Source of the DNA: an uncultured Verrucomicrobiae bacterium
GTDB taxonomy: Bacteria > Verrucomicrobiota > Verrucomicrobiia > Chthoniobacterales > Chthoniobacteraceae
Length of the DNA stretch: 64,000 nt
Assembly (NCBI GenBank): GCA_963769025.1
Contig: CAVYKI010000002.1
Span: forward strand, 192,001 to 256,000
Direction: 5' to 3'
Below, one piece after another: positions 3,704-24,213 of this stretch. Numbering within the stretch: position 1 is the first letter of the stretch; every line of letters begins with the position of its first letter. Below the pieces are notes generated by a model. It searched no databases. It was not told where the DNA came from and saw nothing but the letters and a program-made list of their open reading frames with translations. A program made the translations under genes and the position numbers.

Positions 3704-4379
3704 ATGCCACAGATTTTTCCTCGCGGCAGTAACTTTGTCCCTCTGAAAATCGCCATCGTCCTCGGGGCGTTGGCGACGGGGGCGTTCGGTGCGTTTTGGT
3801 ATTACTGGACGCCGAAGTACACGCGCGTCGGGTACCAGCCCGCGCAGCCGATTCCATTTTCCCACAAGATCCACGCAGGACAGCTCCAGATTGATTGCCG
3901 CTATTGCCACAGCTTTGTGGAGACGGCGTCGCATTCGAACATTCCCTCGGCGCAGGTCTGCATGAGCTGCCATTCGCAGGTGCAGAAGGACAACCCGAAG
4001 CTGGAGCCGCTCCGCAAGGCGTGGGAGACTGGCCAGCCGGTGAAGTGGGTGCAGATTCACAAGACGCCCGACTACGTGTATTTCAACCACGCGGTGCACA
4101 TCAACCGCGGCGTCTCGTGTGTGAGCTGCCACGGTCGCGTGGACCAGATGGACGAGGTTTACCATGCCGAATCGCACGCGATGAAATTCTGCCTCGACTG
4201 CCACCGCGCGCCGGAGAATGGGTTTGCGTCCTCTCGACAAGGTGACCGACTTGGGATGGACCGCGACGCCGAAGGGCAAGGAATCCAAGCAGCAGGCGCA
4301 GCTTGATCTGGGTAACGAACTTAAAAACCAGCGCGGAGTGAATCCCCCCGTCGCCAACTGTGCTGGGTGCCACCGATGA
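3704..4379 (+). CDS. actA: ACIII pentaheme cytochrome c subunit; frameshifted between ~4220 and 4340
   Basis: N-terminal TM, QPIPFSHKIH, CRYCH, CMSCH, CVSCH, CLDCH; fifth motif CAGCHR* at 4359-4379 in a shifted frame. Confidence 0.9.
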
Positions 4380-7300
4380 GCAAACGCATTCTCAATCACC
4401 CGCCCGAAACGCAGACCGGCCCGAAATACTGGCGCAGCCTCGGCCAGGTCGCGGACACACCGGAATTCAAGTCGTGGGTGAACCGCGAATTCCCCGAGGG
4501 AGCCTCGGAGGCGAACATCGAAACGAGCCGCCGCGGCTTCATGAAATACATGGCTGCGAGCGCCGCGCTCTCGGGCCTTTCGCTCAGCGCCTGTCGTCGG
4601 GAGGAAAAACAGCTCGTGCCGTTTTCGCGCGGCGTGGAGTGGAGTGTCCCGGGTAAGGCGCTTTTCTACGCGACATCGCGTCCTCACCGCCGTGGCGCAC
4701 AGCCGCTCGTCGTCGCGACGTACGACGGACGTCCGACGAAAGTGGAAGGCAATCCCTTTCACCCGGCGAGCAAGGGTGCGACGGACATTCACAGCCAGGC
4801 ATCGCTGCTTGATCTGTATGACCCGGATCGTTCGCGGCATTTCCGCCACGCTGGTGCCGAGGTGCAGGAAAAGGACTTTGTCGCCGCGCTGGAGGCGCTG
4901 GTAAAGGAGGCTGGGGATGGCAGTGGCGTTGCATTTCTCACCGAGCATTTCAATTCGCCGACCTTCCACCGCCTGAAGGATCAGGTCGCTGCGAAGTTGC
5001 CCAAGGCCCTCTGGGCTGACTACGAGCCGCTCGGCGGCGAGGAGGCCCGCAATGCACAGGAAGCGGCATTCGGACAGGGCATGCGTGCCGTGCCGAACCT
5101 CGAAAAGGCGGACGCGATTCTCGCGCTCGACTGCGATTTCCTCGGCTTTGATGAAGGCACGCTCGAAGGCATCCGCGCATTCTCGCAGCGGCGGTCGCCC
5201 GAGCAGAAGATGAACCGCCTTTACGTCGTCGAGAACCGCTACACGGTCACCGGCGGCATGGCGGATCACCGGCTGCGCGTGCAGGCGAGCGCGGTCGGCG
5301 CCGTTGCGCGGCAGCTTGCCGAGCACATCGCGAACAAGACCGGCGACGCATCGCTGAAGTCGGTGGTCGCGAAATTCCCGGCGGCTTCCCCTTTCACCGC
5401 GACGCAGGGGAAATGGATCACCGAGACGGCGGAGGATCTCATTGCAAAGAAGGGTGCGGCGCTCGTGCTGGTTGGCTACCGACAGCCGGCGGTCGTGCAG
5501 GCGCTCGTGCATGCGATGAATGCGGCGCTCGGCGCGCTGGGGAACACGGTTTCGGGGAGGAAGAGTTCGCGCAAGCCGGGTTCGAACATCGGTGATTTGT
5601 CGAAGGCCATCGCGGCCGGGAACGTCAAGACCCTCTTCATCCTCGGCGGAAATCCCGCGTTCAACGCACCGGCGAATCTGAAATTTGGCAGGCTCCTGCA
5701 GAACGTGAAGACCGTGATTCGCCACGGAATCTACGAGGATGAGACGAGCGTCTCGGTGGATGAGGACGGCAACTCGCGGTGGGTGAAGTGGCACGTCCCG
5801 GCGGCGCATTACCTCGAAGCATGGGGCGACGGACGCGCGACCGACGGCAGCCTCGTCTCGCAGCAGCCGATGATTCTCCCGCTCCACGGCGGATGGTCGG
5901 AGATTCAGTTGCTCAATTTCATCGCCACCGGGAAGCTGAGCGACGGGCTCGAACTCGTGCAGGCGACGTTTAAGGAAGTCGCGCGCGGGATCGACACGGA
6001 GTCGTGGGCGAAATTCCTGCATGACGGATTCCTCGCGGGCAGCCAGGCCGGGCGCGAGCCGCTCAGCTTCAATGCTGCACCGGTCGCGGAGCTTGCCGCG
6101 ACGTTCCATCCCGGCACGGGAATGGAAGTCGTCTTCGTGCCTTGCGCGAAGGTGGATGATGGCCGCTATGCGAACAACGGCTGGATCCAGGAATTGCCGG
6201 ACCCGGTCACGAAGGTCACATGGGACAACGTCGCGATGATCAGCCCCGCGACGGCGAGGGAACTCGGACTTGAGGCGAAGCAGGGGAATGGCGCATTTGT
6301 TTTCGACAACGGCGCATGGCTTGGCATCGACGTGAATGGGGGAACGCTGGAAATCCCGGCGCTCATCATTCCGGGTCACGCGGATAACAGCATCACGATC
6401 GCCGTCGGCTACGGCCGCACATTCGCGGGCCGCGTCGGCGGACGCGAGGGCAACTACATGTCGCACGGCGGGCTTTTCGCCGAGTACACGGGCGTCGGTT
6501 TCAACGCCTATAAGCTGCGGACCTCGGCTGCGCCCTACATCGCGACCGGCGCGAAGGTTCGCACGATCGACCGCAAGGCGTATCCCGTCGCCATCACTCA
6601 GGAACACGGCGCGCTCGAAGGCCGCGGTGCGGACGTCATTCGCGAGGCCACGGCGGAAACGCACAAGCACGAGCCGGGCTTCGCAAAGGACGAGCACTGG
6701 CTGCATGAGCGGGGCGCGCTGGATGCCCACGCGGAACGGCGGGACAAGAAGGGCTACCCGGTTCCTAACAGCGCCTACTCGCATCCCGAACTGACCGATA
6801 AGGATCATCAGTGGGGGATGGCAATGGACCTGAGCATCTGCACCGGCTGCTCGGCGTGCATGATCGCGTGCCAGAGCGAAAACAACATCCCGGTCGTCGG
6901 TAAGGAACAGGTCATCGAAGGCCGCGAAATGCACTGGATCCGCATGGACCGCTATTTCGTGAGCGACATGAACACGCGGGACAAGACGCTGGACATCGCC
7001 GAACCGCGCATGGTCATGCAGCCGATGCCCTGCCAGCACTGCGAAAACGCACCGTGCGAGACTGTCTGCCCGGTAAACGCAACCGCCCACAGCGACGACG
7101 GTCTGAACGTGATGGCCTACAACCGCTGCATCGGCACGCGGTATTGCGCGAACAACTGCCCCTTCAAGGTCCGCCGCTTCAACTTCTTCGACTTCAACGA
7201 GCGCCAGAAGGACAAATACTTCCGCTGGAATCTCATCAACGAGAAGGGCATGGCCGACACGCTCAAGCTCTCGAAGAATCCGAACGTCACCGTCCGCATG

Positions 7301-7645
7301 CGCGGCGTGATGGAAAAATGCACGTTCTGCGTGCAGCGTATCCAGGAGGCGAAGATCGCCGGCAAGGTGAAGGCGAAGGACACGAACAAGGTGCAGGTGC
7401 CCACCGACAGCTTCCAGACCGCGTGCCAGCAGGTGTGCCCGACGAACGCCATCGTCTTCGGCAACCTCAAGGATCCAAAGAGTGCCGTGAACAAGACGAA
7501 GGACAACCCGCGCGACTACCGCCTGTTCGACTACATCGGCGTGAATGCGCGCGTGAGCTACCTCGCCCGCGTGATGAACCCGAACCCGAAGATGCCCGAC
7601 GTCCCGAAGGACGGCGTGACCCATAAGGAAGGAGGGCACGCCTGA
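4376..7645 (+). CDS. actB: ACIII subunit B (molybdopterin-oxidoreductase-like domain plus Fe-S domain), Tat lipoprotein
   Basis: YWRSL...REF, SRRGFMK plus LSAC lipobox, [10 protein letters not shown], Cys motifs [41 protein letters not shown]. Confidence 0.95.
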
Positions 7646-9105
7646 TGTCCGACACCATCCATGAATCCGAAGACGGCGTGGTGCGCCTCTATTGCCCGCC
7701 GGAACTCCGCCGCGAACCGCTCGTCACCAACGATCGCAGCTTCAACTGGATCACCGAAAAGGTCTCCGTCATCTGCGAGGAAAAGACCCGCGCGTGGTGG
7801 TGGATTGCGTTCCTCATTTTCAGCCCCATCGCACTCCTCGTGCCGACGCTGCTCGGCTATCAGGTTTCCAACGGTGTCGGCGTCTGGGGTGAAAACCAGC
7901 CGTTTGGCTGGGCGTGGGACATCACGAACTTCGTCTTCTGGATCGGCATCGGCCACGCCGGAACGCTGATCTCGGCGATCCTTTTCCTCACGCGCCAGAA
8001 ATGGCGCACGTCCATCAACCGCGCCTCCGAGGCGATGACGCTCTTCGCCGTGATGTGCGCCGGTCTCTATCCCGGCTTCCACGTCGGTCGCGTGTGGAAG
8101 GCGTGGTACCTTTTCCCGATCCCGAACTGGAACGGGCTCTGGCAAAACTACCGTTCGCCGCTGCTGTGGGACGTGTTCGCAGTCTCGACGTATTTCACGG
8201 TGTCCGTGCTGTTCTGGTACGTCGGCCTCATCCCCGACCTCGCCACGCTCCGCGACCGTGCGAAATCGAAAATCAAACAGTGGGCCTACGGCATCGCAGC
8301 CGTCGGCTGGCGCGGCGGCAACCGCCACTGGCAGCACTACGAGATGGCCTACATGGTCCTCGCCGGCCTCTCGACGCCGCTGGTGCTCTCGGTTCACTCC
8401 ATCGTCTCCTTCGACTTCGCCACGTCGATCGTCCCCGGCTGGCACACGACGATTTTCCCGCCCTACTTCGTCGCGGGCGCAGTCTTCGGCGGCTTTGCAA
8501 TGGTGCTCACGCTCATGCTTCCCGCGCGGCTTTTGTATCCGCAGCTCGATGACATGGTGACGCGGAACCACGTGGACAAGATGGCGAAGATCATCCTGCT
8601 CACCGGTTCCATCGTCGGCTACGCCTACCTGATGGAGCTTTTCATCGCGCTCGTGTATTCCGGGCACTTCTACGAATACAACGCCTTCTACAACCGCGCG
8701 ACCGGCTGGTATGCCTGGCACTACTTCGCGATGATGTTCTGCAACGTCATCACGCCGCAGATTTTCTGGTTCAAGTCGATGCGTCGGAATTACATCGTCG
8801 TATTCATCGCCTGCCAGTTCGTGAATGCGGGCATGTGGTATGAGCGCTTCGTCATCATCGGCACCACGCTTGCGCAGGACTTCCTGCCATCGTCGTGGGG
8901 ACATTACACTCCGTCGTGGGTCGAGGTGTTCACGTTCATCGGCACGTTTGGATTCTTCATCACGGCGTTCCTGCTCTTCATGCGCTTCCTGCCGATGATT
9001 TGCGCCTTTGAGGTGAAGGCCGTGACGCCAGCCGCCGACCCGCACCATGATCCGAAGGGCGGACACGGGGGCCCAGAGCCGAAGGAGGCGGCGCTCACTC
9101 ACTAG
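7645..9105 (+). CDS. actC: ACIII NrfD-like quinol-oxidising membrane subunit
   Basis: [51 protein letters not shown]. Confidence 0.95.
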
Positions 9106-9107
9106 CC

Positions 9108-9674
9108 ATGACTGAATCCTTCAAGCGCCTTTTTGCCGTCGGGGCCGAGTTCGACAGCCCTCACGCGCTCTACCACGCGGCGGAAAAAGTCCGCGACGCC
9201 GGCTACACGGTCTGGGACTGCCATTCGCCCTTCCCGGTCCACGGATTGGACAAGGCCATGGGCCTGAAAAAATCCTGGCTTAGCGCATTCATCTTTGTGT
9301 GCGGCTTCACGGGTTTCGTCACCGGACTGGCGCTGGTGACGATTACCAGCTTCGGAATCTATCCGATCATCGTGAACGGCAAACCGACAGACTGGGCAAA
9401 CGGACTTCGCGCGCTGCAGTTCTTCTTCCCGGTGATGTATGAGCTGACGATTCTCTTCGCCGCCTTCGGTGCGACCTTCGGCATGATTTTGCGCAACGGC
9501 CTGCCGCGGCTGCATCATCCGCTCTTCAACTGGAGCCGGTTCTCGAAAGTCACCGACGACAAGTTCTTCATCATCATCGAGGCGCGCGACCCGTTGTTTT
9601 CCGACGCGAAGACGAAGGCGCTCCTGAGCGAAGTCGGCGGCAAACACGTAACGGAGGTCTTCGACCACGACTAG
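9108..9674 (+). CDS. actD: ACIII subunit D (DUF3341)
   Basis: SPFPVHGLD, YPIIVNGKP, PVMYELTILFAA, TDDKFFI; operon position. Confidence 0.92.
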   Translation: MTESFKRLFAVGAEFDSPHALYHAAEKVRDAGYTVWDCHSPFPVHGLDKAMGLKKSWLSAFIFVCGFTGFVTGLALVTITSFGIYPIIVNGKPTDWANGLRALQFFFPVMYELTILFAAFGATFGMILRNGLPRLHHPLFNWSRFSKVTDDKFFIIIEARDPLFSDAKTKALLSEVGGKHVTEVFDHD

Positions 9675-9677
9675 GCC

Positions 9678-10367
9678 ATGCTGAAAGTATCCTTTGGAAT
9701 CATCATCATCCTTGCAGTCATCGGCATCGGCCTGGCCGGCTTCCGTGGCGACAAGATGAGCCACACGCCGGTCGAGTGGTTCAACGACATGGCCCACCAG
9801 CCCAAGTACGAGGCGCAGCACCGCAGCGGATTTTTCAACGACACCCGCGCCGCCCGGTTGCCTGTCGCCGGCACCGTGCCGATGGGCTTCAATCTTCCCG
9901 GCCGCTATTTCCAGACCGAGGGGGACAATCTCGTGAACGGCTCGGGCGGCTTTTCGAACCGGCCGGACTATTACAACACCGGCCGCATGGGCGACGTGTA
10001 TGGCGACGGCATCCCGGACAAGCTCGCCGCACGCGGCGCGGAACTCCTCGCCCGCGGCCACCAGCGCTACGACATTTACTGCACGATTTGCCACGGCGCG
10101 GCGGGGCAGGGGAATGGCGTCATCAAGAGCTTCGGCCTCGTCACCGTGCGCCCGCTCATCGATGAGCTGCTTCGCGCACAGCCCGACGGGCAGATTTACA
10201 ACACCATCGTCCACGGGAAAAACACCATGGGCGCCTATGGCCCGGTCATTTCGGTCGAGGATCGCTGGGCGATCGTGGCCTACGTGCGCGCATTGCAGCA
10301 GGCTGCGGGCGGAAAACTCGCGGACCTCCCCGAGGCCGAGCGAAAGAAACTTCAGGAGCAGAAATGA
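9678..10367 (+). CDS. actE: ACIII monoheme cytochrome c subunit E
   Basis: DMAHQPKYEAQ, PVAGTV, CTICHG, NTMGAY, DRWAIVAYVRALQ. Confidence 0.92.
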   Translation: MLKVSFGIIIILAVIGIGLAGFRGDKMSHTPVEWFNDMAHQPKYEAQHRSGFFNDTRAARLPVAGTVPMGFNLPGRYFQTEGDNLVNGSGGFSNRPDYYNTGRMGDVYGDGIPDKLAARGAELLARGHQRYDIYCTICHGAAGQGNGVIKSFGLVTVRPLIDELLRAQPDGQIYNTIVHGKNTMGAYGPVISVEDRWAIVAYVRALQQAAGGKLADLPEAERKKLQEQK

Positions 10368-11550
10368 GCCATCCCATTCACATCCCGCAGGCCGAGCAGT
10401 TTGACGCAAAGAAGGGCGTCCAGCTCAAGAACGCCTTCCTTGGGGCGGCCGTGATCGGACTGACAGGCGCGGCGGTGACCTTTTTCGCCAACCGCGCGCT
10501 CTTCGCCCACGTGTGGCTGTTCGCCTTCATGTATTTCTTCACGGTGCTGTGCGGCTGTTTCTTCTGGAACTGCCTGCATCACGCGACCGACTCGGAGTGG
10601 TCGGTGGTGATCCGTCGCCAGATCGAGAACCTCTCGTCGCTCCTGCGCTACATCGCGATCTTCTTCATCCCGATCGCGCTGAGCGTGGCCATCCTTTACG
10701 CGTGGTTTCACCGCCGCCGCTGTGATGCCCGCCAGCAAGGCGCTCTACCTGAACAAGCCGTTCTTCTGGGCCCGGGCCGTCGCATTCTTCGCCCTGCTAT
10801 TCCTCCTGTCGCGCATCCTGCGCAACCGCAGCATGGCGCAGGACAAGGACGGCGCATCGGCACACACTTTCACGATGCGGAAGTTCGCGATCGCCGGCAT
10901 CCCGACGCTCGCGATCTGCCTGACGTTCTGCGGGCATCGACTGGCTCAAGGCCCTCAATTACCACTGGTTCTCGACGATGTGGGGCGTCTACCTCTTCGC
11001 GGGCGCGGCCGGCGCTTCGATGTCGCTCATCGTGCTCACCGTGTCGTGGCTGAAAAAACTCGGCTACCTGAAGGTCGTCACCGCCGAGCACTATCACGTG
11101 ATGGGCAAGTTCATGCTGACGTTCACCGTCTTCTGGGCCTACATCGGCTTCTCGCAATACATGCTCATCACCTACGCGAACCTGGATGAGGAGACGATTT
11201 ACTTCCGCGTCCGCAATACCGCCGGCTGGAATTACGTGAGCCATTTCCTCGTCTTCGGGCGTTTCTTCTTCATGTTCGTCCCGCTGCTCTTCCAAGGCAC
11301 GAAGAAGTCGAAGCTCATCAACTACTGCGCCGCGTGGATTCTTTTCATGCAGTTCGTGGACATCTACCTCATCGTGATTCCCGAGTGGAGCCCGGTCGGA
11401 TTCTCGTTTCGCGCATTGCTCGCCTCGATATTCCCGTGGCTCGGAATCGGCGGCTGCCTGGGACTGCTCTTCCTGAAGACCATCGGGCAAGGCTACCTTT
11501 TCCCGACGAAGGATCCCCGCCTCGCCGAGTCGCTGAAACTTACCAACTGA
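10364..11550 (+). CDS. actF: ACIII membrane subunit F; frameshifts near ~10715 and ~10930
   Basis: WSVVIRRQIE, KALYLNKPFF, HWFSTMWG, FWAYIGFSQYMLITYANLDEE, PTKDPRL across three frames. Confidence 0.88.
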
Positions 11551-11551
11551 C

Positions 11552-12391
11552 ATGTCATCGAAACCCAACGTAACCACACCCTGGCGGATTTTTCGTCGGC
11601 CTTGGCGGCGTCGTGTGCTTCAGCATCGTGGCGGCCGCCGTCTTTTGGTGGGTAAAATCATCGTCGGTGAACAACGAATTCCACGCGCAGCAGGTCGCGC
11701 TCGGCCTGCGTGCCGCTCCCACCGTAACCGGGCCGGAGCTGGAAAAGACGAACGCCGCGACCGGTAAGCTCTTGAACGAGGCAGGCACACCGTTACAACG
11801 CGGGCAAACAGCCCGACCTCAACAATCTCGAAGACCTGCGCGGAGTCATCCGCTACCGCGAGTCGGAGAAAGCGAAGACAGAAGCCGAAAAGGCGCTCAC
11901 CGCAGCCCCCGCGTGGAAGGACAAGGCAAAGGGCGAAGTGACCATGCCGATCGATCTCGCGATGAAGGTGGTCGCGGCCGGATTGAAGGACCGGAAGCCG
12001 AAGGCATCCGCGGTGAAGGTGGACATCTCCCCCGCACCGGACCCGAACGCGCCGCCGATGATGCCAAACGCCATGGGCGGCGGGGCCAGGACTGTCTTTT
12101 TCGCGGACCCGAATGCCGTCGCGGCACCCGCGCCCGAAACACCCGCAGCCACGCCCGCACCGGCGGCAACTCCTGCCGCTCCCTGCAGCTTCCCCTGCGA
12201 TTCCGGCACCGCGCGGCTGCACCGGTCACGCCGCCAGCCGCGCCGGCGCCCGTGCCCGCAACTCCGCCCGCCCGGCCGACCCGGCAAAAGGCGCATCGTC
12301 CGATGCTGCACCTTCCTCCGGCGCCGTCGCGGCGACTGTGCCTGCGCCCGCGCGCCCCACACTTTTGAACTGGCCTGAAACGAAAAAATGA
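11552..12391 (+). CDS. actG: ActG-like single-TM subunit with a long Pro/Ala-rich tail; several frameshifts
   Basis: TM (VVCFSIVAAAVFWWV), WKDKAKGEVTMPIDLAMKVV resembling the ActG W-x-D...PI(D/E)xAM motif; lies after actF. Confidence 0.6.
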
Positions 12392-13917
12392 ACGCCACAC
12401 CCGAGACAACAACCGCCACGAAGGGCGGGGTCACCCGGCGCGACATCGAAAATGTCGAGCGCGCGCTCATCGACCATTCCGCACGCGGCCCCGTGCTGAC
12501 GTTTTTTACGACGGCGATCTTCTGGCTGCTCGTGTCCGTGGTGCTCGGCTACATCGCCTCGAAAAAGCTGCACGCGCCGGATTTCGTGCTCGGTCCCGAA
12601 TGGCTCTACGAGCTGCTCCACATGATGCGCGCGACGACCTCCATCTTTGAGCATCTCACCTATGGCCGCGTGTGGCCGGCCTACACGACGGCGCTCATCT
12701 ACGGATGGTGTTCGCTCGGCCGGAATGGGCGTGGCGACATGGCTCATCGGCCGCCTCACGCGCGTCTCGATCAAGGCGCCCGCCGTTTTGCAATTCGGCG
12801 CGTGGTTTTGGAATGCGGGCGTAGCGGTCGCCGGTCATCACCATCCTCGTCGGCTACAACAGCGGGCTCGAGTTCTTCGAGATGCACCGCGTGGCGCGCA
12901 TGCTGATGTTCCTTGGCTATCTTTGCATCGGCATCTGGGGGCTCATCCTTTTCCGTTACCGCCGCCAGTCGGCGCCATACATCTCGGTCTGGTATCTGGC
13001 GGCCGCGTTCTTCCTGTTCCCGTGGTTTTTCGGGACGACGGACGCGCTGACCCACGATGCCGCTTCCGGGCGTGATGAAAAATATCGTCAATGCTTGGTA
13101 TCAGAATGGCCTGTTCAATCTCTGGCTCGGCTGCATCGGCATCGCCGCCGCCTACTATCTCATCCCGAAGGTCATCAACCGCCCGATCTACAGCTACAAC
13201 TTGGCGAGCATCGGATTCTGGTCATGGATTTTCCTCGGCGGACTCACGGCGATGACGCGACTGAGCGGCGGACCGGTGCCCGCGTATCTGGTGACGATCA
13301 GCATCGCGGCGAGCATCCTGATGATCATCCCGATCGCGACCCTCACGGTGAACTTCGTCCGCACGATGAAGGGACACACGGGGCTGATGGCATCCTCGCC
13401 CACGCTGCGTTTCACGTTTGTCGGAACGGTATTCTTCAGCATCGCCGCAGGGCTGAGCGTCCTTTCTTCGCTGCGCTCGGTGGACAGCTTCACGCACTTC
13501 ACGGAGTGGAGCCACGGGCAGATGCACATGGTCACGATGGGCTTCTTCAGCATGGTGATGTTTGGGGCGATTTACTACATCACACCGCGGCTCGTCGGCT
13601 GCGAGTGGCTCAGCCGCACATTCATCAAGCTGCATTTCTTCGGCACGGCATACGGCGCGGCGACGATCATCGGCCTGTTCCTCTTCGGCGGGCTCGCAAC
13701 GGGCTTCACGCTGAACGAGCCGACCGCGGACAAGATGGCATTTTACAACGTGAACGGCATCGGGAACGCCTACATGCCGGTGAAGACCTACATCGGATAC
13801 GTCCTGTTCGGCGTCGCGCAGATCATCTTCGCAATCCATTTCCTGCTCATGCGGCTGCGCATCGGCCAGCCCGCAGGCGAGCCGACGCTTCTCGCAACCC
13901 CGGGGGAGGGCCACTAA
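12388..13917 (+). CDS. CcoN-like (cbb3 subunit I fold) protein lacking most metal ligands; frameshifts near ~12720, ~12830 and ~13055
   Basis: LTYGRVWP, YISVWY, YYLIPKVINRPIYSYNL, THFTEW, FGAIYYITPRL, HFF landmarks follow the CcoN order. Confidence 0.85.
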
Positions 13918-14633
13918 ATGCAGAAACCCGCCACACTTTTCACGGGCATCTTCGGCGCGTTCGCACTTTCGTGCGGCGTGATGGTGCTCATCCCGCACAG
14001 CCAGCTCGCTTCGCTCCAGCCGCAGATCCAATGGGACGAGGGGCAGAATGCGCCGCCGATGTCTATCCGGTGCAGCGCCACCTCGCGGGCCGCGCCGTGT
14101 ATGTCTCCGAGGGCTGCATCTACTGCCATTCGCAGCAGGTGCGCGACCCGCAGTACGGGCCGGACATGGAGCGCGGCTGGGGTTCCCGCCGCACGGTTGC
14201 GCGCGACTACATTTTTGAAGACGTGCCGCTGCTCGGCAACAAGCGCCTCGGGCCGGACCTTTCGAATTTCGGCTGGACGGCGAAAGTGGCGCAGGCGGAC
14301 GGCAGTGAAAAATCCGTCGGCATGTGGCGCAACGAACCCGAGGACGACACGAAGCGGCCTGCCGCGCGCAACGCGCAGTGGATTTACCAGCACCTTTTCA
14401 ACCCGCGCGCCATCTTCAGCGATTCGAAGTGCCCGCCCTACCGATTCCTTTTTGAGCGCAAGGAAATCGGCGAGAAACCGTCGCCGAACGCGGTCGCGCA
14501 CGACTCGAAATTTGAATACTTGCCCACGCTGGAGGCCGAGCATCTCGCAGATTACCTCCTCTCGCTCGACCGGAGCCACGAGCTGAAGGAAGCGCCCACC
14601 GTCATCAAGCCCAAGGAGGCCGCAAAGAAATGA
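13918..14633 (+). CDS. CcoO-like monoheme cytochrome c; frameshift near ~14060
   Basis: GRAVYVSEGCIYCHSQQVR, LLGNKRLGPDLS, HLFNPR, LADYLLSL. Confidence 0.88.
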
Positions 14634-15858
14634 GCCACCCGAACGAAGGACAGGATCGCCTCGACTACCAGGAGACTGCGGACGTCACCGAAGTCCATGC
14701 CGCCATCGCGCGCGAACATGCGGAGCCGAGTGCGGACGTGACTCCGATTCCGACGTGGCTGAGCATCGTGTGCGCCGTCTCGCTGTGCTGGGCCGGCGCT
14801 TACATCGGCGTGTTTCAACGGCGGCTTCAGCGGGAAGGTTTACAACGAATACGAGAGCAGCCCGGCCGTCTTTTTCCCGCTGCCCGGCAACGCGCTAGCC
14901 GGAGGAGGCGGGGCAGCCGCGGAACTCACGATGCTCCAGCTCGGTGCGAAGGTTTACAAGGAGACGTGCATCAATTGCCACATGCCCAACGGCCTCGGCC
15001 AGCCCGGCGCGGTGCCGGCGCTTGCCGGTTCGGAATGGGTGGACGGCTCGGAGTACAACGAAAAGCGGCTGGTCGGAATGGTGATGAAGGGAATGAAGGG
15101 GCCAATCACCGTCAAGGGCGCGAACTTCAACAGCCAGATGCAGGCATGGGAGCCGCTCGGGCCCAAAAAGCTCGCGGCAGTTCTCTCGTACATCCGGCAG
15201 GAGTGGGGAAACAAGGGCGGCGAGATCACCGAGGCGCAGGTGGCCGCGGCGAAAAAGGAATTTGCCAGCCACAGCGACCAATGGACCGTGGAGCAGATCA
15301 AGGAAATCCCGCTCGATGCAAAGCTCGAAGGTGCGGCGGCTCCCGCAGTTCCCGGTGCAACCGACGCGAAGCCGAACCCCAAGCCCGCCGAAGCTGTCAA
15401 GCCCGCGGATGGCGGCAAGCCTGCCGCAGTCGGCAGCCGCGTTCGACCTGTCCGCTTCCGTCGCAGCCGGAAAGAGCATCTACATGGCGACCTGCTTTGC
15501 GTGCCATCAGGCCACCGGCATGGGGGTCCCCGGAGCTTTTCCGCCGCTTGTCGGCACGCACTATGTCCTGGAAGACGACCGCCGTCTCGTGGCCATCGTC
15601 CTCAAGGGAATCGTCGGCGCGATGACGGTGGATGGGAAAGTGTATGCCACCGGGATGCCGAACCCGATGATGACATTCCCGCAACTCAAGGACGACAAGA
15701 ACGTCGCCGACGTGCTGAACTATGTCCGCAACAGTTTCGGCAACAAGGTCGGGCGTCCCATCACGCCTGAATTCGTCGGCAAGGTGCGCGCCGAATTCGC
15801 AGGTCGCGACGCGCAGTGGACGGAGGCAGAACTGTTGAAATTTCCGCCAGCCAAGTAA
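14630..15858 (+). CDS. Membrane-anchored diheme cytochrome c (CcoP position); frameshifts near ~14818 and ~15430
   Basis: TM after PIPTWL; CINCH...SQMQAW and CFACH...GMPNP domains joined by a Pro/Ala/Lys linker. Confidence 0.8.
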
Positions 15859-15874
15859 CATTCCAATCCCGATC

Positions 15875-16354
15875 ATGAAAAAACTCACGCTCATCCTCGC
15901 CTTTACGCTCACCGCCACCGTCGCTTCCTTTGCCGAGGACGATCTGAAAGCCTCCGCAGACCGCGGCAAGGCGATCTACATGCAGACCTGCATGGCCTGC
16001 CACCAGCCGACCGGACTCGGCATCCCCGGCGCGTTCCCCCCGTTTGACGGCTCGGAGTGGGTGACGGGAGACACGAAGCGCCTCGTCGCACTTGTGCTCA
16101 AGGGCTACATGGGGCCGATCACCGTGAAGGGCGTAAACTACAACAATATCCTCATCGCGGTGGACACGCAGTTCCCGATCCTCAAGGAAAACGCCAAGCT
16201 GGCCGACGTGCTGAATTACATCCGCACCGCGTGGTCGAACAAGGCGGATGCCGCGATCACGCCCGATTTCATCCAGAAGGTCCGCGAAGAATTCAAGGAT
16301 CGCACCACGCCCTGGAACGCCGAGGATATCGCGAAGGCATTCCCGGCGAAGTAA
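15875..16354 (+). CDS. Periplasmic monoheme cytochrome c
   Basis: Signal peptide, CMACHQPTGLG, FPPFDGSEWV, LADVLNYIR; paralogous to the preceding domains. Confidence 0.9.
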   Translation: MKKLTLILAFTLTATVASFAEDDLKASADRGKAIYMQTCMACHQPTGLGIPGAFPPFDGSEWVTGDTKRLVALVLKGYMGPITVKGVNYNNILIAVDTQFPILKENAKLADVLNYIRTAWSNKADAAITPDFIQKVREEFKDRTTPWNAEDIAKAFPAK

Positions 16355-16366
16355 CCCAACACGACC

Positions 16367-18282
16367 ATGGCTCACGCCGCAGAAGCACACACGCAGGAAG
16401 GCCACGCCGACCACGGGCACCACGACCACCACGATCCCGGGTTCTGGCGCAAGTGGGTCTTCTCCACCGATCACAAGATGATCGGTATTCAGTACACCGT
16501 CACCGGGCTCGCATTCCTGTTTTTCGGATTCGGGCTGATGATGGTGATGCGCTGGTCCATCGCGCATGGTGCGGAAGCGCTGCCAGGCACGTGGGGTTCG
16601 ATGCTCCATGCCATTTTCGGCGATGCGGTATTCGACAAAGTCGTCGGACCGGATGGAAAAGCCATCGTCGGCTATTCGCTATCAACGCAGGGCTACAACG
16701 TTTTCGGAGCCATGCACGGCACCATCATGGTGTTCTTCGGCATTGTGCCGATCGCTTTCGCGGGCTTCGCGAATTTCGTGCTGCCGCTTCAGATCGGCGC
16801 CGTCGGACATGGCGTTTCCGCGCATCAACATGGCGAGCTTCTGGTGCTTCTTCATCAGTTGCGTCATCATGGTGTGGAGCTTTTTCGTGGAGGGCAGCGC
16901 GGCAAAATCCGGCTGGACGAACTACCCGCCACTCGCCGGCGTCGCCGACTCCGGACCGACCATTCATCACGTTTTCAACGGCGGCACGCTCTGGCTGATC
17001 GGCATGGTGTTCAACATCACCGCGTCGCTGCTCGGCTCGATCAATTTCATCGCCACCGTCGTCCAGCTCCGCGCGCCGGGCATGACGTGGGGCCGCCTGC
17101 CGTTCTTCGTCTGGGCACAGTTCATCACCGCCTATCTCCTCCTGCTCGCCTTCCCGCCGCTCGAGTCCGCGGCGATCATGAATCTCTTCGACCGCGTATT
17201 CGGTTCGAGCTTCTTCATGCCTACCGGCCTCGTCGTAAATGCGATGGGCTCCGACGGCCAGCCGTTGCTGTTCTCCGGCGGTGGCAGCCCGATGCTCTGG
17301 CAGCATCTTGTTCTGGTTCCTCGCGCATCCGGAGGTGTACGTGCTCATCCTGCCGGGCATCGGCATGGTCACCGAGATCATCGCGTGCAACAGCCGCAAG
17401 CCCATCTGGGGCTACAAGTCCATGGTCGGCGCGATTTTCGTGCTCGCGTTCCTCTCGCTTCATCGTCTGGGCGCACCACATGTACATGACGGGCATGGGC
17501 CCGAAGGTCTCCGCGTTCTTCCAGACGACCACGATCATGATCTCGATCCCGTCGGTGATTCTGCTGACGGCACTGCTGATCTCGCTGTGGGGAGGATCGA
17601 TCCGTTTCAATACGCCGATGCTCTTCGCCACGGCGTTTCTGCCGATGTTCGGCATCGGAGGGCTCACCGGCATCCCGCTCGCATTCAATGCCGTGGATCT
17701 CTACATGCACGATACCTACTACGTCATCGCGCATTTCCATTACATCGTCGCGCCGGGCACCATCTTCGCGATCTTCGCAGGCATCTATCACTGGTTTCCC
17801 GAAGGCAACGGGGCGCATGATGAACGAAACGCTCGGCAAGCTGCACTTCTGGGGCTCGCTGATTGCCATCAATCTGCCTCTTCGTCGCCGATGTTCCTGC
17901 AGGGCATGGCCGGTGTGCATCGCCGCTGGTGGGATGGCGGAAGCGCGGCTTATTCCGCGACCGTCCAGTCGGTGCTCCATTGGAATCAATTCTCATCCAA
18001 TGCCGCGTGGGCGCTTGGCCTGGTGCAGTTGATTTTCGTGTTCAATTTCTTCTGGAGCATCGTTCCGCGGGCGCAAGGTGCCGAATGACAATCCGTGGGA
18101 CGCGACCACCCTCGAGTGGGACACGCCGACGCCGCCTCCGCACGGCAACTTCATCAAGCCCATCACCGTCTATCGCGGCCCGTACGAATACAGCGTGCCC
18201 GGCGCGGACAAGGACTTCACGCCACAGTCCGAGCCGCCCGCCGGAACGCGCCGCACCAGCCGCGGCCCCTGCGCACGCGTAG
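16367..18282 (+). CDS. coxA: Cytochrome c oxidase subunit I, A-family; multiple frameshifts
   Basis: STDHKMIG, MHGTIMVFF, DMAFPRIN, HPEVY, WAHHMY, HDTYYVIAHFHY, NPWDATTLEW. Confidence 0.93.
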
Positions 18283-18303
18283 GCAGGAATACTTTCGCGA
18301 CTC

Positions 18304-19228
18304 ATGGAAATCCCATACACAGTTACGCCGCGTCCCGACACCGGCCTTACCAATCCGAAGCTCGGCATCTGGCTGTTCCTCGCCTCGGAAGTCATGCTCT
18401 TCGGCGGACTCTTCGCCGGCTACATCTTCATGCGCCTCGGCGCGGAACCGTGGATGTGGCCGCAAGGCTGGCTGAACGTTCCCGTCGGCACGTTCAACAC
18501 CTTCATCCTCATCGCATCGTCCGTGACCGTCATCCTGTCATGGGAGGCGCTGAAGATGCGGAATTACAAGGCGTTCAAGACATGGCTTGTTGATCACCTG
18601 GCTCTGCGGCATCGCGTTCCTTGCGGTGAAACTCAGCATCGAGTGGCCCGCCAAGTTCAGCCATTTCGGTGCCTACATCAAAAAGGAGGCCGCGGAGAAG
18701 TACGAACCTTACCTCGGTAACGATGACGGCAAGGACAGCGCCGGCAATTTCGAGAGCGGCTACCTCGCACGCAAAGGATATCCCCGTCTCTTCATCAGCG
18801 GCCACCCGGAAAATTGGGCGGATGTCTCGAACCCAAAGGTGGACAAAATCGTCCTCGAGGCCATCGACGAGGAGAACAGCACACCGAGATCCGCCGACCA
18901 CGATCGCGCCCGTTTCATCCCGCGCGACATGGTGCACCTGCACGAAGGCCATAAGGTCGTCCTGCACAAATCCGATTTGGTGAACGGCTACGGCCCCTTC
19001 TACCCGCGGCTGAACACATACCTCGCATGCTACTTCATGATCACCGGCCTGCACGGCCTGCACGTGCTCGGCGGCGTGCTCGTCTTCATGTATTTCTGGG
19101 GCCCAGGCTCGAAGCTCTTTAAGACCAACCCCGAGCAACTCAGCAACCGAATCGAAGTCGCCGGCCTCTTCTGGCATCTGGTGGACTTGGTCTGGATCTT
19201 CGTCTTCCCGATTTTCTATCTCCTTTGA
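18304..19228 (+). CDS. coxC: Cytochrome c oxidase subunit III with a large loop insertion; frameshift near ~18590
   Basis: KLGIWLFLASEVMLFGGLF, NTFILIASS, TGLHGLHV, GLFWHLVDLVWIF. Confidence 0.92.
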
Positions 19229-19230
19229 AA

Positions 19231-19665
19231 ATGGCCGACCATCATTCACCCGCTCCAGCTACGACACCGCAAGCCGCACACGCTGCGCCCGATGGGCATG
19301 CTTCCCCTGGCCACGGCGACTACTTGCATCACGTCCGTCCCTATCTGCTGGTCGGAGCTGCACTGTTTGTTTTCACCATCATCACCGTGGGGCTGTCCTA
19401 CGTGAGATTTGAGGACGCCGCGATTTTCCGCTGGGTGTTCGCGATCATCGGCATCCACGGCCACGGCATCAACATCACCATCGGCCTGATTGTCGCCGCA
19501 TTCAAAGTCTGCCTCGTCGGAGCGTGGTTCATGCACTTGAAATCGGAAAAGGGCGAAATCTGGCGCCCGCTGATCTTCACCTTTATCTTTTGCTTCGGAT
19601 TGTTCGCTTTGTTCCTGCTGGCCCATTCGGATCCGATTTACTCGACCATCTTCACGCAGCACTGA
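19231..19665 (+). CDS. coxD: Cytochrome c oxidase subunit IV family
   Basis: IAAFK-type KVCLVGAWFMHLKSE motif, three TMs, follows subunit III. Confidence 0.85.
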   Translation: MADHHSPAPATTPQAAHAAPDGHASPGHGDYLHHVRPYLLVGAALFVFTIITVGLSYVRFEDAAIFRWVFAIIGIHGHGINITIGLIVAAFKVCLVGAWFMHLKSEKGEIWRPLIFTFIFCFGLFALFLLAHSDPIYSTIFTQH

Positions 19666-19850
19666 TGTCGCTAAAAATCTTCCACATCTTTTTCATCCTC
19701 CTGAGCTCCGCCCTTTGCGGGGGCGTGGCGTGGTGGTGTTTTGACAATGGTGTGGCAAAACTTTACGGCTATCTCTTCGCGGCAGCCGCGGCGCTGCTTC
19801 CCGTGTATGGTGCCTGGTTCCTCTGGAAGACCCGAAAACTCATCCTATGA
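19665..19850 (+). CDS. 61-aa two-TM protein
   Basis: MSLKIFHIFFILLS...WFLWKTRKLIL; start and stop overlap both neighbours. Confidence 0.7.
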   Translation: MSLKIFHIFFILLSSALCGGVAWWCFDNGVAKLYGYLFAAAAALLPVYGAWFLWKTRKLIL

Positions 19851-20113
19851 GGCGTCCCTTCCCGATCCTGTTGGCTGTCACGTTCGCCACGATCCCCGCA
19901 AGAGCGTCCGCCTGCGCAGTCTGCATGGGCGATCCGAATTCGTACCTCGCCGATGCAACCAACAGCACCATCTGGATACTGCTCGGTCTCGTGGGGTTCA
20001 TCTTCGTGGCCACCGGGCTGACCGCCCTTTTTCTCTGGTATCATGCGCGAACGCCGCTCCCGCCGCATGTCCAGTTGGTAGAAAACCTCACAACCGAACC
20101 CGAGGAATGCTGA
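19847..20113 (+). CDS. 88-aa exported CxxC peptide with a C-terminal TM anchor
   Basis: Signal peptide ...ARASA|CAVCMGDP, then a hydrophobic helix; translationally coupled. Confidence 0.75.
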   Translation: MRRPFPILLAVTFATIPARASACAVCMGDPNSYLADATNSTIWILLGLVGFIFVATGLTALFLWYHARTPLPPHVQLVENLTTEPEEC

Positions 20114-20114
20114 A

Positions 20115-20999
20115 ATGACACTCGCTGCCCTGTCTGACTATTTCGATCTCAACAAGCTCATGGGCATGCTCCCGAACCACTCGGAGCATGGCAAGGAGAT
20201 CGATCACATGCTGAACTTCTGCCACTGGTTCATGCTGCTTCTCTTTGTGGGGTGGGGGAGTTTCTACCTCTACACGATCTGGCGCTTCCGCAAATCCCGG
20301 CACCCGCGTGCGGACTACCACGGCGTGCGCAGCCACCTCTCGACGCACTTGGAAGTTGGCGTCGTCATCATCGAGGCCGTCATCCTGCTCGGCTTCGCGC
20401 TGCCGCTTTGGGGCAAGCGTGTGAACGAGATTCCCGATGACGAAAAGGATGGCGCGCTGAAGGTCCGGGCAATGGGCTATCAGTTCGGATGGTATTTCCA
20501 CTACGCCGGTGTGGACGGCAAGTTCGGCCGCCAGCACATCCGCTTCATCCAGAGTCCGAACGTCCTCGGCCTCGATCCTACCGATCCGGACGGTGCGGAC
20601 GACATCGTCGTCGCGGACAACCAGCTCCATTTGATCAATCACAAGGCGACCGTCGTCCGCGTGAGTTCGCGCGACGTGATCCACGGCTTTGCACTTCATG
20701 AGATGCGCATCCAGCAGGATGCCATCCCCGGCACCGAGGCACCGCAATGGTTCCGCCCGGTTTCGACGGGCGAGTGGCAGATCATTTGCGCGCAGCTTTG
20801 CGGCGCGGGTCACTCGACCATGCAGGCAAAGTACATCGTCGAAGATCAAAAGACATTCGACGAGTGGTATGCGGGTCAGCACGACTTCACTCAGGGCTAC
20901 CTTAAGAGGCAGGCTGAGGAGGTCCGGAAAAAGGCCGCCGAGGAGCAGGCTGAAATCGCGAAGAAAGCCGCCGAACACGGCGAAAAGAAGGCGCATTGA
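20115..20999 (+). CDS. coxB: Cytochrome c oxidase subunit II (CuA)
   Basis: Two TMs, QFGWYFHY, DVIHGF, CAQLCGAGHSTM. Confidence 0.93.
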   Translation: MTLAALSDYFDLNKLMGMLPNHSEHGKEIDHMLNFCHWFMLLLFVGWGSFYLYTIWRFRKSRHPRADYHGVRSHLSTHLEVGVVIIEAVILLGFALPLWGKRVNEIPDDEKDGALKVRAMGYQFGWYFHYAGVDGKFGRQHIRFIQSPNVLGLDPTDPDGADDIVVADNQLHLINHKATVVRVSSRDVIHGFALHEMRIQQDAIPGTEAPQWFRPVSTGEWQIICAQLCGAGHSTMQAKYIVEDQKTFDEWYAGQHDFTQGYLKRQAEEVRKKAAEEQAEIAKKAAEHGEKKAH

Positions 21000-21147: not shown

Positions 21148-22296
21148 ATGGATCATCCGCCAACCAACCCGTGGATTTCACGACTCGCGAAGGTCTGCGT
21201 GTTGCTGACCTTTTTCCTCATCTTCCTCGGAGCCATCGTCACGACCAGCGGGGCAGGGATGGCCGCGCCAGCGGCACCTCATGTGGATGGCACTTTGCTC
21301 AACCCCACCAGCCCGGTGACGCAGACCGCGTGGTGGAAAGACCCGGCGCTGCTGAAGGAACATACGCACCGCCTGGTCGCGATGAGCCTCGGCCTCGGCA
21401 TCGGCGCGCTCGCTGCCGCGCTCTGGCGCAACTGGCTCGCATTTGCCGTCTCCCTCCTCTTCATGGGCGCTGCGGAAGGCCTCCGTTCCCTGAAGCTCGA
21501 CCCCGCGCTTATCGCCCAACTCCGCATCTGGCCCGCGATGATTCTCTTCATCACGCTGCTCATCTTCGGCGCACGACGGCGCGGTATAAGGCCAACCACG
21601 GAGCAGTGGATGGCGCTAATCGCGTACATCGCCGCATGCGCGCAGGCGCTGCTCGGCTCGCTTCGCGTGAATTTCGAAACGGCCGGAAGCATCGCCCTCG
21701 CGACGAACATCCGCACATTCCACGGAATCTTCGCGCAGGCGTTCCTCGCCATGCTTGTCATTCTGGCCGCGCGACTCTCGCCGTTTTGGGGCCGACTCTG
21801 CTCGCCGCTGCCGGTGGCGGCAAAAATCCGACGGCTGGCTGTGGCTGCGATGGTCCTCTACTTTGCTCAGATCACCTGCGCGGCATATCTCCGCCACCGG
21901 GGCCTCGGTCTCGCGATCGCCAGCTGGCCCGCGGCGCAGGCCGATCCGGGATGGAGCGTCAGCGGGAGCTGGCTGCCGGCTGTCTGGTCGCACGTCACCG
22001 GCATTCACTTTCTGCACACCCGCGTCCTTCCGGTGCTGCTGCTCGGGCATCTCGTCGGCATGGGCATCATCCTGATCAAGCGTGCACGGCCAGAACCGCT
22101 GCTCTCGCGTCTCGGGCTTCCGCTTGCGGCGATCACCGCCGTGCAGTTCCTCCTCGGTGTCCTGGTCGTCGTGCTCTACATCCACGGTGTCCCGCGCAAT
22201 CCGCACATCACCAATACCCACGTCCTCACCGGTGCGCTGCTCGTCGCGCTCATCGCGCTCATTTTCACCAGGGCAGGGCGGCTCCGCGCGGCATGA
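21148..22296 (+). CDS. ctaA: Heme A synthase (CtaA/Cox15 family)
   Basis: LGAIVTT, EHTHRL, QALLG, FHGIFAQ, HFLH, QFLLG, THVLTG. Confidence 0.85.
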   Translation: MDHPPTNPWISRLAKVCVLLTFFLIFLGAIVTTSGAGMAAPAAPHVDGTLLNPTSPVTQTAWWKDPALLKEHTHRLVAMSLGLGIGALAAALWRNWLAFAVSLLFMGAAEGLRSLKLDPALIAQLRIWPAMILFITLLIFGARRRGIRPTTEQWMALIAYIAACAQALLGSLRVNFETAGSIALATNIRTFHGIFAQAFLAMLVILAARLSPFWGRLCSPLPVAAKIRRLAVAAMVLYFAQITCAAYLRHRGLGLAIASWPAAQADPGWSVSGSWLPAVWSHVTGIHFLHTRVLPVLLLGHLVGMGIILIKRARPEPLLSRLGLPLAAITAVQFLLGVLVVVLYIHGVPRNPHITNTHVLTGALLVALIALIFTRAGRLRAA

Positions 22297-23192
22297 GCAC
22301 GCCAGCCGCCAGCGCCATCCCGCATGCGAACGCCGAGCCCGGCATACTCGCCGATCTCCTCGATCTCACCAAGGCGCGCCTCAACCTGCTGGTGCTCATC
22401 ACGACCTTCGTCGGTTATTGGATGGGATCCTCCGGCGCGATGAACTGGCAGCGTCTCATCTGCGCGATGCTCGGCACTGCGCTCACCGCCGCATCTGCCG
22501 CCGCGCTGAACCAGCTTTGGGAGCGCAAGGTGGACGCGCTCATGGCACGCACCGCGAGCCGGCCGCTTCCTGCCGGTCGCATGAAAGGCGGCATCGCGTT
22601 CGCGCTCGGCCTCGCGCTGGGCACCGCGGGCACCGCCCTGCTCTGGTTTGCCGTAAACTCGCTGAGCGCTCTGCTCGCACTGGGAACGCTCGTCATTTAC
22701 GTGCTGATTTACACGCCGATGAAGCGCCGCACCGCACTTTGCACACTCGTCGGCGCGGTGAGCGGAGCCATCCCGCCGGTCGTCGGATGGGCGGCCGCAA
22801 ATCCCGATCTCACGCTCGGGGCATGGGTGCTCTTCGCCGTGCTGTTCGCGTGGCAGATGCCGCACTTCCTCGCCATCGCATGGATGTATCGCGAGCAGTA
22901 CCGCGGCGCTGGTTTCGTCATGCTCAAGCGCGACGACGAGACCGGGTTCACGACGGCGGCGACGAGTTTCGTGTTTACGCTCCTGCTCACGGCCGCGACG
23001 TTGGTGCCGTTCGATGCCGGGACGGCGGGTGGCACGTATCTCGGCGGCGCGCTGCTCATCAACAGCGTCTTCTTTCTCGCAGCCCTTCATTTCTTTGCCG
23101 ACCGCTCACGCCCGGTCGCGCGCCGGTTGTTTTTCGCGAGCATCATCTACCTCCCGCTCATCCTCGGGCTCATGGTCTTCACCAAGGAATGA
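22293..23192 (+). CDS. ctaB: Heme O synthase
   Basis: LTKARL, DALMARTASRPLPAG, YTPMKR, GAIPPVVGW, WQMPHF. Confidence 0.95.
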   Translation: MSTPAASAIPHANAEPGILADLLDLTKARLNLLVLITTFVGYWMGSSGAMNWQRLICAMLGTALTAASAAALNQLWERKVDALMARTASRPLPAGRMKGGIAFALGLALGTAGTALLWFAVNSLSALLALGTLVIYVLIYTPMKRRTALCTLVGAVSGAIPPVVGWAAANPDLTLGAWVLFAVLFAWQMPHFLAIAWMYREQYRGAGFVMLKRDDETGFTTAATSFVFTLLLTAATLVPFDAGTAGGTYLGGALLINSVFFLAALHFFADRSRPVARRLFFASIIYLPLILGLMVFTKE

Positions 23193-23770
23193 ACGCACAC
23201 CGTTTCACGGCCATCGCCGCCGCAATTTTTCTCGCCGGCTGCACGGAGGCAAGGCCGCTGCCGAAACGCTTCGAGGTCCCAAAATTCACCCTTGCCGAGC
23301 GCAGCGGGCAACCGTTCGATTCCACGTCGCTGCTCGGCAAAGTCTGGGTCGCGGATTTCTTTTTTACCTCGTGCCCCGGCACCTGCCTCCTGCTGAGCAA
23401 CCGCATGAAGGAAATCCACGCGGCCACGGCGAAAGGCGGCGGCGTCCATTTCGTATCCATCAGCACCGATCCTGAAACAGATACGCCCGAGGTGCTCCGC
23501 AACTATGCCGCAAGCCTGGGGGCCGACGAGCGTTGGTCGTTTCTCACCGGACCGCGCCAGGCGATTTTCGAACTGAGCATTGGCGGATTCAAACTCGCGC
23601 TCGCGGATGCCGACGGCGTGGACGTGAAGGAAAAGATCATCCACAGCACGAAGCTTGTCCTTGTGGACCGGCGGGGCTGGATTCGCGACTACTACGACGG
23701 TGTCGGCGACAAGCCCGGTGAAAAGGAACGCCTGCTCGCTGACATCAAACGCCTTCTCCAAGAGCCATGA
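23189..23770 (+). CDS. SCO1/SenC copper chaperone, lipoprotein
   Basis: LAGC lipobox, FFFTSCPGTC, DPETDTP, IHS. Confidence 0.92.
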   Translation: MNAHRFTAIAAAIFLAGCTEARPLPKRFEVPKFTLAERSGQPFDSTSLLGKVWVADFFFTSCPGTCLLLSNRMKEIHAATAKGGGVHFVSISTDPETDTPEVLRNYAASLGADERWSFLTGPRQAIFELSIGGFKLALADADGVDVKEKIIHSTKLVLVDRRGWIRDYYDGVGDKPGEKERLLADIKRLLQEP

Positions 23771-24213
23771 CCGCACTCGAAAGTCTTCCAGCCATCAACG
23801 CCTCGCTCAACGCCACGTGCGGCATCCTTTTGGTGTTTGGCATCTGGCTGATCAAGACCGAGCGCAAGCAGGCGCACGGCATGGTCATGGGCGCGGCATT
23901 TGCCGTTTCGTGCATTTTTCTCGGGTTCTACATCTGGCACAAATTCGAGCTGCACGCCGCGACGGGACGCTGGAACACGACATTCCCCGGACCGCAGCCA
24001 TGGAGGACGATCTACCTCGTGATGCTTGCGACGCACGTCGTGCTCGCGATGGCCGTGCCGCCGCTGGCGATTGTCACCATGCGCCACGCGCTCGCCGGGC
24101 GTTACGAAGCGCATCGCAGGCTCTCAAAGGTGACGTTTCCCGTCTGGTTCTATGTGAGCGTCACCGGCGTGCTGGTGTATTTCTTTTTGTACCGCTGGTT
24201 TCCAGTCGAGTGA
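23767..24213 (+). CDS. DUF420 (CtaM-like) oxidase assembly membrane protein
   Basis: LPAINASLN, H...M, THVVLA, H...PVWFYVSVTGV. Confidence 0.9.
   Translation: MTALESLPAINASLNATCGILLVFGIWLIKTERKQAHGMVMGAAFAVSCIFLGFYIWHKFELHAATGRWNTTFPGPQPWRTIYLVMLATHVVLAMAVPPLAIVTMRHALAGRYEAHRRLSKVTFPVWFYVSVTGVLVYFFLYRWFPVE

Follow-up and report, generated by a model that had tools for sequence, protein, structure and literature searches.

A ligand-less CcoN homologue in the alternative complex III operon of Verrucomicrobiia, a putative non-catalytic scaffold

What might a cbb3 oxidase subunit I still do once nearly all of its metal ligands are gone? This question is raised by a CcoN homologue, here called CcoN*, that is encoded directly after the genes of alternative complex III (ACIII) in a 64,000-nucleotide stretch of DNA from an uncultured Verrucomicrobiae bacterium. 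The whole analysed stretch is referred to as the window. Genes of this type carry the annotation cbb3 subunit I and serve to infer microaerobic respiration. The operon was resolved into the following features:

3704 to 11550, plus strand: actA, actB, actC, actD, actE and actF (ACIII); actA and actF are split by frameshifts, and actA has five CxxCH motifs in whole orthologues
11552 to 12378, plus strand: single-membrane-helix protein with a Pro/Ala tail, between actF and ccoN*, presumably ActG-like
12388 to 13917, plus strand: CcoN*, a ligand-less CcoN homologue of about 508 aa (PF00115), in four frame pieces as assembled
13918 to 14633, plus strand: CcoO homologue that keeps its CxxCH (14115-14129), with Cys substituted for the axial Met (within 14421-14438)
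14630 to 15858, plus strand: membrane-anchored diheme cytochrome c (CcoP-like), frameshift-split; whole orthologues have two CxxCH, each with a downstream Met
15875 to 16354, plus strand: monoheme cytochrome c with a signal peptide; the usual distal Met is missing in the genus
16367 to 20999, plus strand: coxA, coxC, coxD, two small ORFs and coxB, an A-family (aa3) oxidase
21148 to 24213, plus strand: ctaA, ctaB, sco and DUF420 (oxidase assembly)

The window coxA has intact ligand motifs, although it is frameshifted as assembled, and coxB has a CuA motif and no heme c. A separate canonical cbb3 cluster was located elsewhere in the genome (C9:175571-182000), comprising a CcoNO fusion with all ligands, CcoP, and CcoG-like and CcoI-like proteins, so the source organism possesses two oxidases (aa3 and canonical CcoNO) besides the CcoN* locus. 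Three further observations were made on the neighbouring genes. The soluble monoheme cytochrome c (15875-16354) lacks the usual distal Met in 11 of 11 same-genus loci printed (L021-L031) and may be five-coordinate or otherwise ligated. In the CuA motif of CoxB (window 20115-20999), where Glu is the usual residue, Gln was found (C-x-Q-x-C-x3-H-x2-M) in 53 of 54 loci, among both intact and ligand-less cassettes. The small protein encoded between actF and ccoN* is fused to a cytochrome c domain in L038, L104, L108, L118, L119, L122 and L139.

The ligand positions of CcoN* were occupied as follows:

12682 to 12684, plus strand: Tyr at the position of heme b ligand H60, within RVWPAY (12667-12684)
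12867 to 12881, plus strand: E-x-x-E motif (E122/E125 equivalents), kept
13105 to 13107, plus strand: Asn at the position of CuB ligand H207, within WYQN (13096-13107)
13237 to 13260, plus strand: Gly at cross-link Y251 and Thr/Arg at CuB ligands H257/H258, within GGLTAMTRL (13237-13263)
13519 to 13527, plus strand: Gln at heme b3 ligand H345, with H347 kept, within SHGQMH (13510-13527)

An earlier sequence-only reading had named these motifs by eye, and each was found where that reading had placed it. Its proposed alignment with Pseudomonas stutzeri CcoN bore out the His and Tyr losses: a HMMER alignment of the C-terminal 286 aa of CcoN* to 3mk7_A, gap-free across the active-site helices and motifs, gave H207>N, Y251>G, H257>T, H258>R and H345>Q, with H347 retained. 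The remaining substitution, H60>Y, was taken from an alignment with the genome's own canonical CcoN (contig C9) and the intact subfamily. Five of the six His and the cross-link Tyr of P. stutzeri CcoN are missing, leaving H347 as the sole His; the low-spin heme b pair (H60, H347) is incomplete, the heme b3 His is replaced, and none of the three CuB His is present. With the heme b3-CuB ligands replaced, the earlier claim that no binuclear centre is possible held up, and the sequence supports the view that CcoN* would be unable to build the known heme b3-CuB oxygen-reducing centre. We considered a register shift by way of an extra His two residues before G344, and rejected it, since the residue at that place varies between His, Tyr and Gln among genus members. 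Misalignment or a frameshift as the cause of the missing His was ruled out by the gap-free alignment and by the same-genus orthologues; whole genes in the genus carry the ligand-less motifs, as expected if indels do not explain the substitutions.

The window copy itself is not one open reading frame. Three one-base insertions relative to 5 of 5 relatives, at about 12717, 12830 and 13050 and with shifts summing to +3, divide it into its four frame pieces, so that the gene's description as full length applies to its whole orthologues and fails for the copy as assembled. The three extra bases were missing from contigs of near relatives, rather than of the same strain, in four public runs. Eight of the 19 operon proteins are split by frameshifts in the window, as ccoN* is, and ccoO lacks one base near 14053. 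At 619-2543, a gene that by eye resembles the acetolactate synthase large subunit is likewise frameshift-split, which is consistent with assembly-wide indels. The extra and missing bases of the operon are probably assembly errors.

The gene was found in 26 of 29 same-genus genomes at E<=1e-135. Over the matched region, the frame is open for 451-630 aa in each of nineteen orthologue loci (L002-L020), all with ligand-less motifs and with the same or similar ligand replacements as the window copy. A dN/dS near 1 had been named in advance as the mark of a pseudogene; the median for ccoN* was 0.123 (range 0.04-0.23; Nei-Gojobori; 9 whole loci, 36 pairs and 496 codons, with the window copy omitted), compared to 0.137 for coxA and 0.155 for both actF and ccoO. 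These values support purifying selection on ccoN* as opposed to decay. The three frameshifts of the window copy and the long branches of the ligand-less proteins would be expected of a decaying pseudogene or a sequencing artefact, yet we regard this explanation as hardly credible, given whole frames with the same substitutions genus-wide, a dN/dS of 0.12, frameshifts that are operon-wide and missing from relatives' contigs, and transcription in Methylacidiphilum fumariolicum SolV, as tabulated in the accessible part of the source given below. An AF2 model of the whole orthologue P0001 (pLDDT 92.7) was predicted with the 12-helix fold of a heme-copper subunit I and was closest to CcoN, a structure check that the sequence-only reading had suggested: the best match was cbb3 subunit I (3mk7; Z 50.9, rmsd 2.2 A, 448 aligned), followed by NOR (Z 43.2) and the A-family (Z about 40). 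A promoter scan of the window gave no sigma-70 match, and its 25 terminator-like matches were uninformative, shuffled sequence giving 17.4 +/- 4.2.

We then assessed the form across the class. A search of 301 Verrucomicrobiia genomes gave matches in 166 at E<=1e-60, in two score groups, and 100 regions were fetched, mostly from the low-scoring group, so that locus ratios do not represent prevalence. The 129 distinct loci comprised 41 with all six His and the Tyr, 2 with H207R that were left out, and 86 that were ligand-less. Among these 86, ligand His were retained as none in 40, one in 34, two in 8 and three in 4; the cross-link Tyr (Y251) occurred in 0 of 86, and the residues at the lost positions were unrelated to one another. 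A similar distribution was seen in the 140 of 150 cluster representatives that cover the sites (0 His in 67, 1 in 46, 2 in 17, 3 in 2, 4 in 1 and 6 in 7). Among the loci with partial ligand sets, L061 and L063 keep every ligand except CuB H207, which is Arg and represents a possible first step of loss, and L043 (9173-10672) keeps both heme b His and none of the b3/CuB ligands, making it a candidate one-heme intermediate. In two genomes of family f50 (G170 and G211; L101/L163 and L110/L160), the ACIII operon contains the ligand-less form, and a paralogue with intact ligands lies elsewhere.

It was noted that 62 positions conserved at >=90% in the intact form stay at >=75% in the ligand-less form, mostly Gly, Pro, Trp, aromatics and E125, the last retained in 73 of 86 loci, while 43 such positions, clustered around the metal and channel sites, drop to <=35%, including all ligands and the equivalents of T215, S240 and Y251, which we take to be proton-channel residues. 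This pattern fits selection on the fold and its surfaces, and not on a metal site or proton channel. The earlier suggestion of an ion conduit appeared weak in this light: although the entire 12-helix fold and the Y223/Y224 equivalents are kept, a passive ion or proton path through the former K-channel or the vacated cofactor cavity would have to do without T215, S240 and Y251, and no new conserved polar chain was seen among the kept positions, which makes it very improbable. The other earlier suggestion, a single-heme wire, would have a Tyr/His-ligated heme b in the window genus (Tyr at H60, H347) move electrons across or into the membrane. Its appeal lies in the 115 close homologues, 98 with Tyr at 60 and 81 with His at 347, in the presence of H347 in every same-genus locus covered, and in the two heme b His of L043. 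However, H347 is replaced in sister genera (L037, L038, L041, L042) and survives class-wide in just 16 of the 86 ligand-less loci and in 19 of the 140 representatives, both heme b His occur in 1 of 86, Trp here takes the place of the Arg three positions ahead of H60, and an acceptor on the far side is absent. We therefore consider the wire improbable, even within the genus.

We sought to determine whether the ligands were lost once or repeatedly. A tree of ActC, ActF, ActD and ActE from 86 loci shows the intact and the ligand-less state intermixed, giving 19 maximal ligand-less clades, some on weak nodes. The CcoO tree required 10 changes of state, 6 of them forced by starred branches, and the CcoO data rejected a single ligand-less clade (p-AU 2e-38, 24 rows). 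The CcoN trees differed: FastTree (131 rows) and a quick IQ-TREE (48 rows) gave 2 changes each, and a careful mixture-model tree of 22 rows, picked after the ACIII tree was known, gave 5 changes, 3 of them forced, and rejected one ligand-less clade (p-AU 0.005). The ligand-less CcoN proteins have long branches, and we read the 2-change trees as branch-length artefacts. For 11 of 27 ligand-less proteins the best intact match came from their own family, against 2.0 expected, with kin not independent. A single ancient duplication into intact and dead paralogues, as the 2-change CcoN trees would favour, was rejected on the AU tests of the 22-row CcoN and CcoO data. These phylogenies point to repeated loss of the ligands from an intact ACIII-linked cbb3, at least three times and probably more.

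Among 87 ligand-less loci with wide flanks, actF was upstream in 84, a CcoO CxxCH was present in 87 and a CcoP-like CxxCH in 82, and coxA was downstream within the fetched stretch in 38. The sequence-only reading had described CcoN* as coupled to its neighbours, and an ACIII-ccoN-ccoO-ccoP-like cassette is indeed fixed in Verrucomicrobiia; it exists in two states, with all ligands intact or ligand-less. Within the cassette, the CcoO CxxCH was retained in 80 of 80 loci covered. The axial Met of CcoO, positioned by alignment to the Met of 8smr_F and 9g6b_B, was present in 43 of 43 intact-form loci versus 65 of 84 ligand-less loci. Of the 19 losses, 12 were to Cys, in three families including the window genus. 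Cys was observed in loci of the window genus and of family f17, as well as in a single f6 genome (L104, L108, L118, L119, L122, L139, L092), and sister genera have His or Gln at the position. The CcoP-like hemes that were inspected each have a downstream Met. Five CxxCH were counted in ActA in 72 of 73 loci, and a heme c CxxCH was found in CoxB in 0 of 42.

Other oxidases were then compared between the two states. Another PF00115 protein (E<=4e-111) was found in all 80 ligand-less genomes searched, of 96 in total, the 16 from the window genome's own family being left out, and another heme-copper oxidase was found in 39 of 44 intact-form genomes; these were classed by score and frame length only, and the two counts do not compare independent lineages. 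In G126, which is 100% complete, the intact ACIII-linked form is the only heme-copper O2 reductase. In four genomes of family f22, no other cbb3 was seen among the PF00115 matches. We found that the annotated cbb3 subunit I of cultured relatives keeps only H258, as seen in M. kamchatkense Kam1 (QDQ41613.1), M. fumariolicum (CCG92522.1), M. infernorum V4 (ACD84008.1) and Methylacidimicrobium. According to the accessible part of PMC10205796 (supplement 4), M. fumariolicum SolV has the same gene order (MFUM_v2_0377-0392), and mean TPM values in a methane reactor were 40-85 for act, 36, 49 and 58 for ccoN, ccoO and ccoP-like, and 264, 552 and 454 for coxA, coxC and coxB. By these values, ccoN is transcribed at the ACIII level and the aa3 genes at 5-15x the ccoN level, and a 1:1 complex with aa3 is not implied. 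CcoN* was found both co-encoded with the act genes (84 of 87 loci) and co-expressed with them (SolV TPM), as an ACIII partner would be.

We lean, with modest confidence, towards CcoN* being a cofactor-free membrane scaffold that holds the c-hemes through which ACIII electrons are relayed to a separate oxidase, here the downstream aa3. Of the roles that the sequence-only reading had suggested, a structural scaffold would fit best. An ACIII-bound cbb3 would have lost catalysis where another oxidase was present, and its retained membrane core would keep CcoO and the CcoP-like cytochrome c in place beside ACIII as an exit relay. The c-hemes of these subunits would then pass electrons to the separate oxidase (in the window, the aa3 encoded downstream). 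Since ActA is a pentaheme protein and CoxB lacks heme c, a separate relay module would be needed. His/Cys hemes have low potentials, so the Cys-ligated CcoO heme would be poorly suited to relay, and because of this Cys the route in the window genus would likely run via the CcoP-like diheme. We infer, for CcoN* itself, the lack of heme and copper, the binding to CcoO, CcoP and ACIII, and the electron path.

Several points call for caution on this scaffold and relay. The CcoO Met is kept in 65 of 84 loci, coxA is downstream in only 38 of 87, and aa3 expression is higher in SolV. Furthermore, a 12-helix CcoN* is a costly anchor for subunits already bearing membrane helices, and A-family oxidases are common in the class, kin again not being independent. 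Given the Cys-ligated CcoO, the loose coxA link and the stronger expression of aa3, CcoN* may instead act in assembly or sensing. A sensing module, in which the dead oxidase informs a regulator of the ACIII redox state or of gas bound at the Cys-ligated CcoO heme, would account for the Met>Cys change in 12 loci of three families and for the adjoining soluble cytochrome c without its usual Met, and cbb3 flux signalling operates in Rhodobacter. We nevertheless judge it to be a long shot, as the Met is kept in most ligand-less loci and no regulator was found among the cassette genes compared, which were scored only for similarity to operon genes. Less remote, though still unlikely, is that CcoN*OP is a structural or assembly subunit of ACIII, with its c-hemes a side branch or electron buffer instead of the route to aa3. 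Such a subunit would match the linkage of act genes in 84 of 87 loci compared to downstream coxA in 38, the missing CcoO Met in 19 of 84, and SolV expression at the act and not the cox level in the available part of that dataset. However, none of the 80 loci covered lacks the CcoO CxxCH, inspected CcoP-like hemes have their downstream Met, and the ACIII of Flavobacterium johnsoniae and Rhodothermus marinus feed an oxidase with no such subunit described in the accessible text of PMC8552683.

Beyond the single locus, we tentatively propose, at somewhat less than even confidence, that Verrucomicrobiota repeatedly made an ACIII-bound cbb3 into a cofactor-free adaptor wiring ACIII to other oxidases, in an ACIII-CcoN*OP(-aa3) assembly. 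If true, this would point to a connection between ACIII and terminal oxidases that has not been described, and much of the phylum's tally of 'cbb3 oxidases' would consist of proteins that do not reduce O2, including the only annotated one of Methylacidiphilum. The metal-binding His are treated as near-invariant in heme-copper oxidases, and a widespread, selected and repeatedly evolved form keeping 0-3 of 6 would, if true, be a pseudoenzyme in this superfamily. The earlier warning that automated annotation misleads on high-affinity respiration was partly right: databases do label CcoN* as cbb3 subunit I, and the conclusion is wrong for other genomes, but the window genome holds a canonical CcoNO with all ligands (C9). 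For M. kamchatkense, the available text of PMC6688271 ties the ACIII-adjacent cbb3 to high O2 affinity, yet only one His is left in the annotated protein. In strain IT6, the accessible portion of bioRxiv 10.1101/2024.01.15.574570 records cbb3 transcripts as unchanged in anoxia, with ba3 and aa3 rising. Cultured Methylacidiphilum strains make the role of CcoN* testable.

Compared to known systems, CcoN* appears to be a new, non-catalytic form of the known C-family. No description of a ligand-less CcoN was found in the literature searched, with key subscription papers and the datasets of PMC11214002 outside that search. With the CcoN of P. stutzeri (3MK7/5DJQ), P. aeruginosa (8SMR) and Rhodobacter capsulatus (6XKW), it shares the fold, PF00115, a CcoO partner with CxxCH and the E122/E125 motif. 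It differs at 22% identity in lacking five of six His, the cross-link Tyr, T215 and S240, and the window CcoO has Cys for the axial Met of those systems. The intact ACIII-linked cbb3 of Verrucomicrobiota (e.g. L056, L161), related to QVL33256.1 of Telmatocola sphagniphila, has the same operon position and partners at 36-43% identity and is the direct ancestor state of CcoN*; unlike CcoN*, it keeps six His and the Tyr (41 loci) and can be a genome's only heme-copper O2 reductase (G126). The adjacency of ACIII and cbb3 was noted in PMC8498564 and PMC6688271, which in their accessible sections present the cassette as a functional cbb3, with no mention of lost ligands.

Within the superfamily, the available text of PMC11214002 describes cNOR, qNOR, eNOR, sNOR, gNOR, nNOR, NOD and an N2O-reductase family that, like CcoN*, lack the cross-link Tyr, and cNOR also has a cytochrome c partner. 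In contrast to CcoN*, which keeps 0-3 of 6 without a shared replacement, these families keep their His ligands, and that 2024 survey, in the same portion, presents gNOR as the first family in which any active-site His is replaced. Under the definitions given there, the ligands of an NO reductase were likewise absent from CcoN*, with one His of six in the window and 0-3 in the 86 loci. The closest functional parallel concerns the route out of ACIII. In the accessible text of PMC8552683, an extra heme c bridges ACIII and an A-family oxidase, carried on ActA in F. johnsoniae and on caa3 in R. marinus. An ACIII feeding an A-family oxidase would be common to those systems and the window, where ActA is instead pentaheme and CoxB is without heme c.
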